A stretch of 64,000 bases of DNA from assembly GCF_006345805.1 (NCBI RefSeq), contig NC_043005.1:25296001-25360000 (forward strand), in the 5' to 3' direction. The DNA comes from Octopus sinensis (taxonomy: Eukaryota). The translations under genes and the position numbers were made by a program. The notes below the pieces were generated by a model, which made no database searches, was not told where the DNA came from, and was given only the letters and a program-made list of their open reading frames with translations. Positions 4,714 to 50,315 of this stretch are shown here, in pieces (position 1 is the first letter of the stretch; every line of letters begins with the position of its first letter).

Positions 4714-4755
<42 letters not shown>

Positions 4756-4839
4756 GGTCCCGGGTTGATTCGGGGTTAACCACAGTAAATAAGGTACTCA
4801 ATACATAGTAGAGTAAAATTAATTTAATTATATAGAAGG

Positions 4840-4890
4840 AGCTTCTACAGGACTAGAACTGTTTCATTCAAGAGAAATCTTCAGGAAGCT
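4840..4890 (-). ncRNA. type I hammerhead ribozyme (family A)
   Basis: minus strand AGCTTC-CTGAAGA-T TTC tctt GAA T-GAAA-CAG ttctagtc CTG-TA-GAAGCT; GUA cleavage triplet. Confidence 0.8.
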
Positions 4891-5154
4891 AGTTAACAGG
4901 ATTGTATTGGCATTTATACATTTAGGCAGGTTTAAAGGAGTGTTGGTGGGGGACTTTTTGGGGGTAGGCATAGCGCAAAATATCATACTTGGGGGAGTAT
5001 GATATTTATTTATTCTTCATCTAATTTAACACTGACTCCTTGACCACTCCCCCAAGTATGATATTTTGCGCTATGCCTACCCCCAAAAAGTCCCCCACCA
5101 ACACCCCTTTAAACCTGCCTAAATGTATAAATGCCAATACAATTCTTGTTAACT

Positions 5155-5204
5155 AGCTTCCTGAAGATTCTCTTGAATGAAACAGTTCTAGTCCTGTAGA
5201 AGCT
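5155..5204 (+). ncRNA. hammerhead ribozyme, inverted copy with a 1-nt deletion at the base of stem II
   Basis: AGCTTC-CTGAAGA-TTC tctt GAA T-GAAA-CAG...CTG-TA-GAAGCT. Confidence 0.65.
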
Positions 5205-5644
5205 CCTTCTATATATAATATATATATATATTATATATATTATATATATATATATATATATATGCTGAGCATGCGAAATAGAGAGGACATTTTTTTGCTT
5301 CTATTTTCTTCTCTTTATCAGATGTGGTAGTCCTAGAAAATGTACTGCAAAATTATTATGGAAAAGAACTCCTGTCGAGTTTAAATGGTTTATGTGACTC
5401 ACTTCAAACGCAGGAATTTTCAATGGGCGAAATATAATACACAAAGGCTCACACGCGTGCATACATATTTAAAAGTGTATGAACAAAAGAGAAAGCACGC
5501 GATACATAGGGTAGGGTTTAAACATGTATTGCATTGCATGTATGTATGTGTGTATGTATATTATAGATATCAATCTGTCTGTTTCTCACTCTGCATTTGT
5601 GTGTATATATGTGTGTGCATATGCATGTGTATGTGTATGTATAC

Positions 5645-6833: not shown

Positions 6834-6867
<34 letters not shown>

Positions 6868-6874
<7 letters not shown>

Positions 6875-7995
6875 AACTATGGTTGCAGAACAAACAAATA
6901 AAAGGTCATCCACGTAACATATCACATCTCGAACATTTGATCACATAATGCTTTTCTTACACATAGAATATAGATGCCTATAATCACAGAAGATGGAACA
7001 TAATTCATTAATACAGGCATATAAGAGAAACGTGTGAGTACAGTCTATCGCGATTAAAATTTAATACTTTAGCGACTAAAAAAATATATCTTAACATTAT
7101 AACATCTAGAATAATACATATATAAAAATATAAAGAAATATATAAATATATAAATATATAAAAATACGTATATAAAGAAAACATATAAATATATAATATA
7201 TAAGGTAAGATAAAAGTTCACCATTTAGAATTTTTTTCGATTATATATTGCATGGTTACTTATTATAAGTAACCATGAAATATTGCATCAGGTTTGGTTA
7301 AAGAAATTTCGCCCTGGTATGTGAAGTGTTTTTTTTTTTTATTTTTCCCCTGATGAAGGAGTAATTATCGTGATGCACCTTCGTCCATTAAATACGGTAG
7401 TGAATTCCTGAAATGGCCATAGGTAATGTAAATATGGTTTCTCCTTTTTTGCTTGGACACTGGCTTTTCATAATAAGTTTTTCCTTATCTTAAAAAGTAA
7501 TTTTTAATCGAAAGAATTTACTAAAGGATGAACTTTTATCTTACCTTATATATTATATATTTATATGTTTACTATATATACGTATTTTTATATATTATAT
7601 ATTATATATTTATATGTTTACTATATATACGTATTTTTATATATTTATATATTTATATATTTATATATTTATATATTTCTTTATATTTTTATATATTTAT
7701 TATTCTAGATGTTATAATGTTAAGATATATTTTTTTAGTCGCTAAAGTATTAATTTTTAATCGCGATAGACTGTAGTCACACGTTTCTCTTATTTGCTTG
7801 TATTAATGAATTATGTTTCATCTTCTGTGATTTTATGCATCTATATTCTATGTGTAAGAAAAGCATTATGTGATCAAATGTTTGAGATGTGATATGTTAC
7901 GTAGATGACCTTTTATTTGTTTGTTCTGCAACCATAGTTTACTATATTTGTTCTCATTTACTTGATCACTTCTATAGCCGTCCTATTAACAGTTA
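6868..7995 (+). mobile_element. HHR-bearing fold-back element (family B) inserted in (TA)n
   Basis: inverted arms 6868-7242 / 7505-7947, spacer with a hairpin (7251-7276) and an HHR, unique 3' tail 7948-7995, (TA)n on both sides. Confidence 0.85.
7345..7426 (+). ncRNA. minimal type I hammerhead ribozyme (family B)
   Basis: CTGATGA (7350)-stem II AGGAGT/ATTCCT extended by ATTATCGT/ACGGTAGT-GAAA (7410)-palindromic TGGCCA-TA-GGTAA pairing with upstream TTCCC (one mismatch). Confidence 0.7.
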
Positions 7996-9736: not shown

Positions 9737-10130
9737 GGCGCAGGAGTAGCTGTGTGGTAAGTAGCTTGGCATCTGCGTGGCATCTTGGGCAAGTGTCTTC
9801 TGCTATAGCCCCGGGTCTTCTGCTATAGCACCAATGCCCTGTGAGTGGATTTGGTAGACGGAAACTGAAAGAAGCCTGTCGTATATTATGTATATATATA
9901 TATATATATATATATGTATGAGTGTATGTGTTTGTGTGTGTGTGTGTGTTTGACCCCCTAGCAGTGCTTGACAACCGATGCTAGTGTTGTTAACTCCCCG
10001 TCACTTACGGTTCGGCAAAAGACCGATAGAATAAGTACGGGCTTACAAAGAATAAGTCCTGGGTCGATTTGCCCGACTAAAAGGCGGTGCTCCAGATGGC
10101 CGCAGTCAAATGACTGAAACAAGTAAAAGA

Positions 10131-10131
<1 letters not shown>
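9737..10131 (+). mobile_element. tRNA-derived SINE family 1, near full length, internal (TA)n(TG)n
   Basis: GGCGCAGGAGTAGCTGTGTGGTAAG head; tail GGCGGTGCTCCAG...CAGTCAAATGACTGAAACAAGTAAAAG; several copies in the window. Confidence 0.9.
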
Positions 10132-14259: not shown

Positions 14260-14359
14260 NNNNNNNNNNNNNNNNNNNNNNNNNNNNNNNNNNNNNNNNN
14301 NNNNNNNNNNNNNNNNNNNNNNNNNNNNNNNNNNNNNNNNNNNNNNNNNNNNNNNNNNN
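14260..14359. other. assembly gap (100 N)
   Basis: run of N. Confidence 1.
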
Positions 14360-16478: not shown

Positions 16479-17631
16479 ACATGCCGACTGGGAAATAGCA
16501 TCGCTAGGTGAGGCTGGCTGGCACTAAAGCAGCATTGATGATTGGCAGGTGGGCCAAGGTCTCGGTCTCGTCCATAGTGCGCCCTCCTCCTGGTTCGAAG
16601 GCTTATAGTACTAAACAGCTAGTCAGCTCTGGCTACGGGAACTGAAATTAACATGACACTATTATAAGGCAAGTTTAGAAAGGGCGCAGGCCGAAACTAC
16701 GCGTCCTTCTCCTTCATTGATCAGTTGAAGCTTAGATAGTGTCACGTGACAGTTAGCTGGCGCTGGCCGCTGGATCCAACCGGCGAGTATTTAAAGGGAA
16801 ATTTGGCAAGATGGTCAGTCACCCACTGACATTCGTTGATGCTGCATCGAAGAAACCAAAGAACAAAATAAAAAAGGAGGAAGAAGAAATGCACTCAACA
16901 CCGGAGATGAAAACACCACCGAAACGACGGAGTTAGGCGCTATGTTTAAAACAGTAAAGGAGTAGGAGCTGAAACCGGACGTGGTTCCACCTGATGGTGC
17001 CTTTATTCACTGGATCTTAAAAAGGAGATGTTGAGGTAGCAAACCACGAAACGTGGTTAGAATTCCTCAGATGATATTGAAAGGTCTACGGAACACTAAT
17101 ATTGTAAACCAATTGTGAATAAAAATCATTAAGAATTTCGAATATAAAATTGAGATATATTAGGTACTTCAGAAACACAAATCTAAATGAGAAAAAAACT
17201 GCACAGAATCACCCCAGGTTCTTTGCCAATTTAGGTTTATTAAGTACCTAATTAAACTCAATTCAAAGTTTATTATTGAAAGTCGCAACAGTTTTGCTTT
17301 ATCATAAGCTACCAGCTTAAACATTATTTAGACTATAACGAACTATAATAATACTTTGGCATTAATACAATATTTATTAATTAAATATATCAATATTTTG
17401 CCATTAGTAAGGGCTGTGCATAGGCGGACACGATAGCAAGGTAAATACTTTTAGGTATTTAGTTGCATATCGTTACGTGCTGTGTTCAAACGACGCCAAA
17501 ATCGACTTTGATTTTCATCCATTGGTCTGGTGTCTCTAAAATAACGAACAGTCAACGACCTGGTAAAATTAGAAAATTACAATTTTAAAATCTCACGACG
17601 AGAGATAGTCAGCAACAGTACTTTGGAATAC

Positions 17632-17863
17632 AGATTGCTTGCCAACATAACATGGCAGTCCTGGTTTTGGACGAATGTTGCTGCAATTTAGTCCCAGGAG
17701 ACATCGTCTCCAGCTGGCTATACGACATGATTTGTTCCCTTGTTCGAAAATATAAGGATACAAATCGTGTCGTATAGCCAGCTGGAGACGATGTCTCCTT
17801 GGGTTAAATTGCAGCAACATTCGTCCTAAACCAGGACTACCATGTTATGCTGGCAAACAGTCT
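17632..17863. mobile_element. palindromic MITE-like element
   Basis: ~105-bp near-perfect inverted arms, e.g. GGAGACATCGTCTCCAGCTGGCTATACGACA and its complement. Confidence 0.85.
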
Positions 17864-18529
17864 TTACAACTGGTAAGATTACTTGAACATGTATTTCCCT
17901 AACTTTGAAATAGTGCACATATACCACAAATCAATAATTATATATTAATTAACGGTATCAAAATTTAAACATTAGCATATCGAAGTAGGTAGTTAAAAAA
18001 TCAATTTCTATACACAAATTAGAATCCTTATCGATCGTCTTGTCAAACCAACAAAGAACACAACAAAGTAGGATGGTTATCAACACTTCGAAAAACAGAA
18101 TCCAATATTTCAGCCAATCAGATACTGTTAATTTGACAAGATTGTCAACTCTCGCACATACCGCAGTGATCCACTTAACTGAGTTTTGGTGTTTATAGAT
18201 GCTGACAGAAATTCCGAGATTTCTACGAACGGGTTCATCAGTTTCACGTTGAAATTTTTTATGTGCTGCTGATAAACATTTTAATAGAAAATGCATTTTA
18301 GCAGGTAAATTGTAGCCATAATTGCTCTTTCCTAGCGTGGGATCATAAATGATATTTGAGCCCTGAAAGCCGTTTGAAGAGCGTATCATATATATTGCAG
18401 AGATGTTGCATTTCAGAATTGACTCCATCTTCCGCTTGTTTATTATGAATGTTCAAGTGCCATTTCGATCCTCCACGCGGCTTGCAAGTTTTGATAAATA
18501 TGGTATTGAAACAGGTAATCCGGAATAAA

Positions 18530-20473: not shown

Positions 20474-20601
20474 TGTCAGCGCACAGGCAAGTCCTTCCTG
20501 CGGCTATAAGGGCTTTTAGCTCTTATTTTTAGCAATCTAGGTGCTAGCCTGGACCATCAGTCACAAGGAGCGGCAATTATATATATATATATATATATAT
20601 A

Positions 20602-20783
20602 TAGGAAAAAAGCAACAAGAATGGATCAAGCGATATTGATCCATTCTTGTTGCTTTTTTCCTAGTTGTGATCACCCCACTTTGTCGTATGTCTAACACCA
20701 TATAGATTTCTGGTGCATCCAAATCAAGTACCATATTCATGTGAATTCAATAGAACTCACTTGAATCTTAATTGCTTAAACCG
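20602..20783 (+). mobile_element. family C element, 5'-truncated at the predicted HHR cleavage site, 28-bp fold-back, in (TA)n
   Basis: 20631-20783 aligns with 46901-47054; perfect inverted arms 20602-20629 / 20636-20663. Confidence 0.85.
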
Positions 20784-20821
20784 TATATATATATATACAT
20801 ATACATATATATATATATATA

Positions 20822-20876
<55 letters not shown>

Positions 20877-21071
20877 GTATATATACATATGACAAAATAG
20901 AGTGAAAAAACTACAGAAGACTTGTGTTATATGGTTAAAGAATATCTTTAAATCGTTAAGTTAGGAAAATGTTATAAAATTTGTATAAAGTAACATTGTT
21001 TTTGGAGAGAAAATCGGTTTCGTATTTTCTCTTCAAATTTCTCAAATATATATATATATATATATATATAC

Positions 21072-21179: not shown

Positions 21180-21630
21180 ATTTCAGTTTCCGTGTATCAA
21201 ACCTACTTGCAGCACTTTAATCGACCAGGATGTATCAGAGGACACTTGCCTAAAGTGCTACGCAGTGAAACAGAGACAGAGATTACATGTTTGGGAAAAT
21301 ACTATTTTTGACCCTATATCTATGTATAGAATAAAAGGTGTAATAGTCTTGAGTGTAGCTGAATAGCTTTGAATTATTCGCGTCCCACAGACAAGGTTGG
21401 GAAAAACTATCGTACACACTGCTGCAGTTTTCTCTTTCACTTGTTTCAGTCATTTGACTGCGGCCATGCTGGAGTACGGCCTTTAGTCGAACAAATCCAC
21501 CCCAGGAATTATTCTTTGTAAGCTTAGGACTTATTATATTGGTCTGTTTTGCCGAACTGCCAGGTTACGGGGATGTAAACACTACATCATCGGTTGTCAA
21601 GCGATGGTGGCAGGAGGGGGCAAATACACA
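21180..21630 (-). mobile_element. SINE family 1 fragments (21180-21295 and 21433-21630)
   Basis: reverse-complement matches to the 9737 and 49091 copies. Confidence 0.75.
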
Positions 21631-21704
21631 CACACACAAATATATACATACATACATACATACATACATATTTTATATATAATATATATATATAGAGAGA
21701 GAGA

Positions 21705-24950: not shown

Positions 24951-24960
24951 TCTTTTTTAT

Positions 24961-25159
24961 TCTTTTATTTGTGTCAGTCATTTTTACTGCAGCTATGCTG
25001 GAGCACCGCCTTTAGTCGAACAAATCGACTCCAATACTTATTTTATCGGTCTCTTTTGCCGAGCCACTAAATGAAGGGGACGTAAGCACACCAGCATCGG
25101 TTGTCAATCGATAGTGGGGGGACAAACACAAGCACACACTCTCTTTCTCTCTCTCTCTC

Positions 25160-25218
<59 letters not shown>

Positions 25219-25377
25219 CGACGGGCTTCTTTCAGTTTCCGTGTACCAAATCCACTCACAAGGCTTTGGTCGGCCCGAGTCTATAGGGGAAGACACATGC
25301 CCAAGGTGCCACGCAGTGGGACAGAACCCGGAGTCATGTGGTTTGGAAGCCAGCTCCTTACCATACAGCCACTTCTG
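24961..25377 (-). mobile_element. SINE family 1, full length
   Basis: reverse complement of the 9737 and 49091 copies, internal microsatellite at the same position. Confidence 0.9.
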
Positions 25378-45052: not shown

Positions 45053-45464
<412 letters not shown>

Positions 45465-45493
45465 AATATATATATATATATATATATATTATA

Positions 45494-45906: not shown

Positions 45907-46182
45907 GTACGCACTATTACATATATATGTTTGTGTGTCTCTGTTTGTCCCCCACTATTCTATATAGAGTCGTAATGTACTTTAGCCTGTAATAGTAATT
46001 TTTACATCATCTGCTTGAATAGTATGGTTCGACTAAACATTGGTTTTTTAAAAATTATCGACCTTTGAAATCTATTTCTCTCTTTCTTAATTTTACACAC
46101 ACACACACGAACATATATATATAAGCAAAAATGCTAGTTCAACATCTCTCTAATAGATCAACGCAGTAGTTGTACTGGCATG

Positions 46183-46594
46183 TAATATTCGTAGTTACTT
46201 TAATATAGCTGTCCGATCGAACAGACGACTCTACTGCGACTTTTTTTAACCCCAAGAGGACATCTCCTCCAGCTGGTGAACGATACACAGCTGCATCGGA
46301 TAATTTGCGCGAACCACTACCATCTCCTAGCGACGGGACCAGCAGACCAGTTCTGGTTTCAGGCTCTTTCTACCACTCCTCAGTGACAGTGGAAACGGCA
46401 GAAATAGCCCGAAACCTGAACTGGTCCACTGGTTCCGTCGCTAGAAGATAGTAAGGGGTCACTCCTCTGCTTGCATTTTATCAGTTACAGCTGTGCATCG
46501 TTAACCAGCTAGAGGAGATATCTTCTTGGTATTAAACAATCGCAGTAGAGTCCGCTCGAATGGTGCAACCATGTTAAAGTGGCTACGAATATTA
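46183..46594. mobile_element. palindromic MITE-like element (~410 bp)
   Basis: TAATATTCGTAG...CTACGAATATTA with ~190-bp imperfect arms, TA ends. Confidence 0.85.
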
Positions 46595-46599
46595 TATAT

Positions 46600-47054
46600 A
46601 TCTTACTCGGATTCTCAGAAATTTCGCATGACTGTATCCAAAATTTCTTCACATAACTTGATTAACAATTCACTATGAGCTATATATGGACATGCACAAA
46701 TTCTGTAAGTTCAAGACCTTTCATCGGATCTCCCGGAATCGAACTTTCTTCAATGCAGTTAAACTCACACCCTCATTTGTATCTACCCCTTTTGATGTTT
46801 GGGAATCTCTGATGTTTTTTCGGCTGACGAGTACGAGCCATCTATATTTACTGCATTTTTTGTAGCTTATTAAAGATGTCCTCGTACGAAACAATTGTAC
46901 CGATATTTTAATCCATTCTTGTTGCTTTTTTCCTATTTGTAATCACCCCACTTGTCGTATGGTTAACACCATATAGATTTCCGGTGCATCCTAGTTAAGG
47001 ACCATATTCATGTGAATTCATTAGAATTCACTTGAATCTCAATTACTTAAACCG
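46600..47054 (+). mobile_element. family C PLE pLTR-like element with an intact HHR, ending in (TA)n
   Basis: HHR 46820-46903; tail shared with 20631-20783 and more distantly 52110-52225; 5' boundary approximate. Confidence 0.8.
46820..46903 (+). ncRNA. type I hammerhead ribozyme (family C), intact core
   Basis: TCGG-CTGACGA-GTACGAG...CTCGTAC-GAAA-CAATTG-TA-CCGA; all core nucleotides canonical, GUA cleavage after 46899. Confidence 0.9.
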
Positions 47055-47074
47055 TATATATATATATATATAAA

Positions 47075-49090: not shown

Positions 49091-49254
49091 GGCGTAGCAG
49101 TGGCTGTGTGGTAAGTATCTTACTAACGAACCACATGGTTCCAGGTTCAGTCCCACCGCGTCGCATCTTGGGCAAGTATCTTCTACTATAGCCTCGGGCC
49201 GACCAAGGCCTTGTGAGTGGGTTTGGTAGACGGAAACTGAAAGATGCCCATCGT

Positions 49255-49304
<50 letters not shown>

Positions 49305-49520
49305 GTGTGTGTATATTTTTGTGTGTCTGTGTTTGTCCTCCACCCCAACATCACTTGACAACCGATGCTGGTGTGTTTACGTCCCCGTCAATTAGCGATT
49401 CGGCAAAAGAAACCGATAGAATATGTACTAGGCTTACAAAGAATAAGTCCTGGGGCTGATTTGCTCGACTAAAGTCGGTGCTCCAGCATGGCCACAGTCA
49501 AATGGCTGAAACAAGTAAAA
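49091..49520 (+). mobile_element. SINE family 1, full length
   Basis: A/B boxes TGGCTGTGTGG, GGTTCAGTCCC; internal (TA)/(TG); shared tail. Confidence 0.9.
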
Positions 49521-50315
49521 CAGTAACATTTCAATTATAGTCAATTTCCACAGATCTAAACTTTTATCGAACTCACAACTTTTAAAACACTTCCCGGGCA
49601 CCGCTGATCGATATTGAATATACTTCCTCTTTTCTTATGGCAAAATGTAAACAAAGCTTCAAATAAAAGGTGGGGAGAACTGATTAGATACCAATGTTGT
49701 TATTGTATGAAACGCCGTGTTCATGACGGCGATGGTAATGGCAATGGTATTCATTGTATTTTTTCATCATCTCCAAACTCTGTATAACATTTAATATCGA
49801 TCTGTGGGGACCATTAAGTGTTTGAATGTTTGTGATATCGATAAAATTTTACATCCATGGAGACTGACTTTAATTTAAATGTTACTGATAACACGAAGCA
49901 AACTGAAATCACTTGGGCCAGCCTCAAGCGAGTAAATAAATAAGTGCTGTGGTGCGATACGTTATCCGTTTTTGTGTTTTAGACGTTATGCTGTATTTCA
50001 AGGAAGATTTGCCTGCTATTTCTAGTAGATTGTAGGGGGTCCGCTGTGCTAGTCGCCTGGAGTGTCACGACATACTAAAATTCCATAATTTTAAATGCCT
50101 GTAACTTTAATTAATTTCTAGCCAAAATGAATGTAATTTTCGTCATCAGTATACAAAACTACATCAGAACTATATTTTTGGAAAATAACAATAAAAAACA
50201 AAAGACAAAAACAAACGAAACTTGAATCTTATGCAAATATTCTACTTGAATATTTTAAAGACTTTTGGACTTGATAAGAAATTCAAAAATATGAATTAAT
50301 GTGTAACTATTAAGA

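Follow-up and report, generated by a model that had tools for sequence, protein, structure and literature searches.

The closest described systems to the repeat family considered here are the Penelope-like elements (PLEs), in which 5' truncation, an adjacent inverted copy and a bias towards microsatellites have been described, Naiads included (PMC8557442), and in which the inverted palindromic junctions of Penelope copies have been read as self-priming (PMC3846280). The role of the hammerhead ribozyme in these elements is open. Its function has been called unclear (Craig 2021, PMC8557442), cleavage was dispensable in vitro with no RNA ends at the cut (Frangieh 2024), and metazoan PLE hammerheads cleave poorly in vitro (PMC4209133). 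For the anole element, ribozyme-dead RNA inserted equally well in vitro, uncut RNA was the dominant substrate, and no RNA-seq reads started or ended at the cut (PMC11167929). For the R2 element, genomic 5' junctions correlate with the position of the ribozyme cut (PMC3774820), and cDNA snap-backs occur, for one protein, especially after full-length cDNA (PMC11371274).

We analysed a 64,000-nucleotide stretch of Octopus sinensis DNA (the window), which has a GC content of 26-41%, is rich in microsatellites and looks like a repeat-rich animal genome. The window also contains a 100-N assembly gap (14260-14359) and a SINE-like dispersed family with internal (TA)/(CA) runs on both strands (9775-10131, 21429-21694, 24957-25376 and 49096-49526). 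Self-BLAST of the window identified only two copies of the family of interest, a 182-base dead element copy (copy A, 20602-20783) flanked on both sides by (TA)n and a longer sibling (copy B); together they are called the A/B family. The features discussed are collected in Table 1.

Table 1. Positions, strands and main properties of the features discussed, in window coordinates.
Feature	Position	Strand	Remarks
(TA)13 run, likely insertion target	20578..20603	.	last TA shared with the inverted arm (2-nt microhomology)
Inverted arm of copy A	20602..20629	-	perfect reverse complement of 20636-20663; alleles of copy A, not of the sibling
6-nt loop of copy A	20630..20635	+	20631-20635 equal sibling 46901-46905
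Sense body of truncated copy A	20630..20783	+	138 of 152 aligned bases identical to 46901-47054; without hammerhead core
Downstream (TA)n run	20784..20890	.	107 nt, TA-rich
Sibling copy B	46602..47054	+	5'-truncated, with an intact hammerhead; flanked by a short TA run and (TA)9
Type I hammerhead motif	46820..46903	+	cut predicted after 46899; in most copies of the family helix I would reach 46818-46905
Unrelated fold-back element with its own hammerhead	6867..7993	+	core at 7350; predicted cut after 7421
Third-family fold-back element	4752..5215	-	lies in (TA)n; loop of 47 nt (4999-5045); hammerhead core not found
Second copy of third family	45264..45466	-	3-nt loop 45397-45399; no hammerhead core found

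The arms of copy A are complementary without a mismatch over 28 bp around the six-nucleotide loop. The initial annotation had described an inverted copy of the element's own start. The perfect 28 bp stood; the arm, however, begins at element base 7, bases 1-6 forming the loop, and its outermost TA (2 bp) is at the same time part of the upstream (TA)13, leaving 26 bp unambiguous. The arm starts 120 nt from the 3' end. The inverted repeat is limited to the 5' 62 nt of copy A and is absent from copy B. The arm has copy A's own alleles, a G at the equivalent of 46910 and a shorter T run, which implies that it was made from the template of copy A and not from that of copy B. No target-site duplication is discernible at copy A, flanked as it is by (TA)n. 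Copy A is a real feature, a known insertion layout with one suggestive coincidence.

Alignment of copy A (20631-20783) with copy B (46901-47054) gave 138 identities, 14 mismatches and 3 gap positions, and the two copies stop at the identical last base just before (TA)n. It thereby confirmed two earlier observations, that copy A lacks the hammerhead and that it shares its 3' end with copy B. Copy B is itself 5'-truncated, since three contigs of public run X3 continue upstream of 46602 with other sequence. Its 5' end lies 298 nt upstream of the predicted cut, and it was made by copying through the intact hammerhead. No coding sequence was found in either copy, and two frames of copy B had no homologue in protein searches. 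Two older self-inverted elements lie in the window at 46180-46597 and 17629-17866, with arm identities of 73% and 86%; the former abuts the 5' end of copy B.

The hammerhead of copy B was borne out as initially annotated, predicted cut included. The core is complete and all three helices are present: helix I has 4 bp, helix II has 7 bp and encloses a 43-nt insert, and helix III is palindromic. Our first hammerhead descriptor matched this motif and nothing else in the window, while a descriptor requiring the palindromic helix III gave two matches in the window and none in 60 Markov-3 control windows. An Rfam search of the window returned no match at the gathering score, this motif included, for which the 43-nt helix II insert and the minimal helix III may account. 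The predicted minimum-energy fold of copy B is not the hammerhead (-22.7 kcal/mol, against -20.4 kcal/mol when constrained). An 11-codon frame (46876-46911) also crosses the motif and opens with an ATG that adjoins helix II on its 3' strand. In this frame the changes seen in the family at 46881, 46893 and 46896 fall on third codon positions and are synonymous, 46910 swaps stop for stop and 46904 alters a residue, a pattern that may be chance.

We next consider the family beyond the window. The copy B stretch is present, whole or in part, in 20 of 24 listed public runs (10 studies, four organism labels), and exact-pattern scans found no loci in metagenome contigs or prokaryote genomes. Contigs of four of those runs, one of which may be the window's own source, were aligned to 46598-47060, 2667 of them at ≥80%; the aligned pieces are mostly shorter than 100 nt, the records were filtered, and only 49-86 contigs per run were partly aligned. 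Single family contigs reach tens of times the depth of low-depth ones, suggesting hundreds of A/B family copies or more. All four runs carry A46893G together with T46896C (shares of 0.23-0.40 and 0.24-0.36), which keeps the helix III palindrome, and C46881T retains a G-U pair in helix II. Position 46904 is G (0.58-0.64) or A (0.17-0.24), together about 80% of depth, and either base pairs with T46819, so that helix I would extend to 6 bp. From the compensatory change in helix III and the alleles extending helix I, the hammerhead looks selected and maintained in the family, on comparative sequence data that may reflect few independent events and may count one covariation many times. A second 3' end at 47044 was seen in five contigs of run X1.

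The initial annotation placed the start of copy A 0-1 nt from the predicted cut, and the alignment agrees. The 5' end corresponds to 46901, or to 46900 with one substitution, i.e. +0/+1 of the cut. This placement depends on five loop bases equal to 46901-46905, followed by a 2-nt gap in the T run; a 5-mer match of this kind is expected in about 1.4% of random six-nucleotide loops, and were the match due to chance, the 5' end would be at 46908, 8 nt past the cut. Base 20630 mismatches sibling 46900 and is probably either a non-templated base or a later substitution.

Copy A is one of four fold-back insertions in (TA)n within the window. The element at 6867-7993 has a hammerhead built like that of copy B: its helix III is palindromic, and its helix II, of 6 bp, closes an insert of 41 nt. 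Regions 7270-7520 and 46740-47060, which hold the two hammerheads, aligned with a score of 56.5 against a shuffle mean of 66, and were therefore treated as separate families. The long arm of this element pairs 6867-7249 with 7947-7499, and its fold centre at 7264 lies 158 nt upstream of its predicted cut, so that it too was copied through an intact hammerhead. Its inverted arm contains a 13-bp hairpin (7251-7277) and then skips the part holding the hammerhead (7278-7498). The two third-family copies (4752-5215 and 45264-45466) share a 3' end and, at an offset of about 77 nt, a short-arm end, yet their folds differ, lying about 293 and about 135 nt from that 3' end; this fits a fixed tail or a second start site. 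The inverted arms of all four insertions end at an internal TA or TATA that matches the flank. Three of the four fold away from any predicted cut, two of these with loops of 1 and 3 nt, which implies that snap-back needs no ribozyme and that a tight hairpin does not mark the end of an RNA. Fold-back is a general habit of these elements.

Our preferred reading, held tentatively and at slightly less than even confidence, is that copy A derives from ribozyme-cleaved RNA, as a side route rather than from the normal template. Copy A would be a truncated fold-back of the family end, inserted into (TA)n by a Penelope-type reverse transcriptase (RT) that likely ran off cut RNA. A nick in (TA)n would allow priming at a fixed site, as the common last base of copies A and B suggests, and a cDNA of about 154 nt would then reach the RNA 5' end at the predicted cut. 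The cDNA ends 0-1 nt short with one unmatched base, a position that is observed and for which run-off is the presumed cause. Its 3' end would next snap back and copy 28 nt of itself, a step supported by the arm's own-copy alleles, and the new end would anneal to the upstream (TA)n through TA microhomology of the kind seen at all four fold-backs. In favour of run-off at the cut, a single unexplained base is all that the geometry requires, the hammerhead looks maintained in the family, and the end of copy A includes the 3' strand of helix I, as cut RNA would, and does not stop short of that strand. On the other side, no Watson-Crick microhomology is present at the snap-back point under this reading, and a cDNA extended 8 nt further would meet a 3-4 nt match; the anole results, the poor cleavage of metazoan PLE hammerheads in vitro and the predicted minimum-energy fold of copy B also count against it.

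Cut RNA would thus feed a side route yielding dead stubs, because copy B and 6867-7993 were copied through intact ribozymes. The initial proposal of a fossil of self-cleaved RNA is sustained in part: copy A is a retrotransposed, 5'-truncated fold-back with its 5' end at +0/+1 of a credible cut, yet it is a single event. The stronger claim, that it is in vivo evidence of template cleavage, was not upheld, with one such copy against two made through intact hammerheads and three fold-backs away from the cut. In vivo cleavage by the family hammerhead is plausible. A broader version, in which the PLE hammerhead cuts germ-line RNA and the 5'-OH product is integrated often enough to give a sharp family-wide peak of fold-back stubs, the ribozyme acting as a brake that makes dead 154-nt copies, we consider doubtful.

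Random 5' truncation and snap-back on uncut RNA, with the match to the cut site a coincidence from scanning many windows, is rather unlikely, though the strongest of the competing accounts. The three other insertions fold at unrelated, variable points, as the two fold positions of the third family illustrate, and 5'-truncated, inverted copies are typical of PLEs, including the hammerhead-less Naiads (PMC8557442). More weakly, none of the 24 loose contig ends listed (of 183 in all) falls at 46895-46910, and no strand-changing (fold-back) or back-going joint is among the joints listed for the four runs, the only one listed being a 58-nt skip; the contigs are fragmented, mostly in pieces under 100 nt, with short, filtered junction contigs. 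Against coincidence stand the probabilities. Among the window's three copies from hammerhead families, one begins at the cut, while the others begin at -298 and -158 with the ribozyme whole. Under a uniform null with an assumed span of 450 nt, the chance of a 5' end near the cut is about 0.7-1.6% per copy, and that of at least one such end among three is 2.0% within 1 nt and 4.6% within 3 nt, i.e. 2-5% per window.

Contig depth was counted for neither side. Summed depth across the bin containing the cut rises 2.13-, 1.06-, 1.60- and 1.85-fold in the four runs (ranks 2, 14, 3 and 4 of 24 inner steps), with a peak at 46918-46933 in three of the four, where it would fit many arms. The rise was not used as evidence since depth is not copy number and steps just as large are found at 46774 and at 46854. 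The fall that follows can be put down to divergence among subfamilies after 46949-46951.

A second account concerns the arm alone and is compatible with a cut or an uncut template: the arm would be a second cDNA, primed by the opposite strand of the (TA)n target at an internal UA of the RNA and joined head to head with the first, without snap-back. The anole PLE protein, for which a dimer is predicted, nicks both strands, extends them and uses two internal RNA start sites (PMC11167929), and the TA or TATA matches at the ends of all four arms, together with the single site at which the third-family short arms end, are in keeping with such priming. However, the arm of copy A lies 120 nt from the 3' end, compared with 30-40 nt for the usual PLE tail, and loops of 1-6 nt in three of the four fold-backs suit self-priming. 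We consider this account unlikely.

It is less likely still that the hammerhead region stopped the RT without cleavage, whether by a stall in the fold or by read-through of about 8 nt, self-priming on a 3-4 nt match and later trimming of the loop. The region is structured, the arm ends in three bases (20627-20629) identical to 46892-46894 within helix III, and pairwise alignment puts the junction at this helix III match with two small gaps. Among the contig pieces listed, 2 of 32 break at 46815-46816, the 5' edge of helix I, hinting at structure-linked ends; these are low-depth records (19 and 20 of run X3, with 27 and 88 letters left over) and could be insertions starting at the upstream edge of the ribozyme or a divergent subfamily. 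However, at least two later loop changes would be required, compared with one under cleavage, and with about ten positions available, a match of 3 nt somewhere is nothing unusual. A stalled RT should halt on reaching the helix and not at its far end, and the predicted DNA hairpin of the cDNA is weak (-1.2 kcal/mol).

The last alternative, which we regard as improbable, is that the A/B family is a non-autonomous retrozyme-like or SINE-like element and not the end of an autonomous PLE: no coding sequence was found in copies A and B, and a 2026 preprint derives animal retrozymes from PLE terminal repeats (10.64898/2026.07.22.740005), but the copies are solitary and not tandem, the family extends upstream of 46602, and helix II is longer than the 4 bp of the canonical form (PMC4209133). 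Copy A is unlikely to be an artefact of assembly, as the arm is short and joined to the flank through TA and three similar structures with slightly diverged arms are present, and a MITE or fold-back DNA transposon was rejected because the inverted repeats are not at both termini.

The A/B family is likely a Penelope-like element, judging from its non-coding hallmarks; membership is inferred since no RT gene was found. A Pfam scan of 138 stop-free window frames (10 + 128, part of 205 candidate frames) returned no RT or GIY-YIG domain, five weak matches below the cut-offs being ignored, and copies A and B are both short 3' stubs. The hallmarks are the type I hammerhead with palindromic helix III in copy B (compare PMC4209133), the 5' truncation with an adjoining inverted copy in copy A (compare PMC8557442 and PMC3846280), and the (TA)n following both copies, insertion into AT-rich or microsatellite sequence being common in PLEs and not exclusive to them. 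No pLTR-type tandem of the family was found in the window. Naiads lack a canonical hammerhead (PMC8557442), whereas the A/B family has the full motif.

Copy A is thus one suggestive copy in a known insertion pattern, and it names both a family and a base for a genome-wide test. If the 5' ends of the family pile up at the cut, they would offer a cheap genomic read-out of germ-line cleavage and would suggest that the ribozyme limits full-length copying. In the literature searched, most subscription papers and supplements lying outside it, we found no PLE copy described as having its 5' end at the hammerhead cut; the supplementary hammerhead-family lists of PMC4209133 and PMC8557442 may include the A/B family.

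The nearest match is to endonuclease-positive (EN+) PLEs (Arkhipova 2013, PMC3846280; Cervera and de la Pena 2014, PMC4209133; Craig 2021, PMC8557442), whose type I hammerheads are built like that of the A/B family: helix II is long, helix I is short and helix III is palindromic. They also share 5'-truncated copies, a head-to-head inverted arm, a palindrome at the junction and a microsatellite target that hides target-site duplications. A 5' end at the hammerhead cut is unreported in the available portions of these three papers. The A/B family further differs in that no RT or GIY-YIG ORF was seen, in its 43-nt helix II insert and in an arm well beyond a 30-40 nt tail. L1 twin priming likewise leaves retrotransposed copies with an inversion at their 5' end, but the segment that it inverts comes from further upstream in the RNA and does not overlap the rest. 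In copy A the arm duplicates the adjoining sense sequence, and twin priming was rejected on this ground.

Like the A/B family, metazoan non-LTR retrozymes are short, non-coding repeats of animal genomes that are low in GC and have a type I hammerhead, but they are arranged in tandem, every unit being short (on average about 300 nt) and having its own hammerhead (PMC7229834; 10.64898/2026.07.22.740005), whereas the A/B copies are solitary, and copy A has no hammerhead and has an inverted arm. A tandem retrozyme was rejected because both window copies are solitary and, more weakly, because the contigs list no back-going joint. R2 offers the closest parallel to the proposed route: a ribozyme-made RNA end, RT run-off and self-priming of the cDNA before joining (PMC3774820, PMC11371274). 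The R2 ribozyme is HDV-like, i.e. of another ribozyme class in another retroelement clade (PMC3774820), and its cut defines the full-length element, whereas the cut considered here would leave 154 nt, a dead stub.
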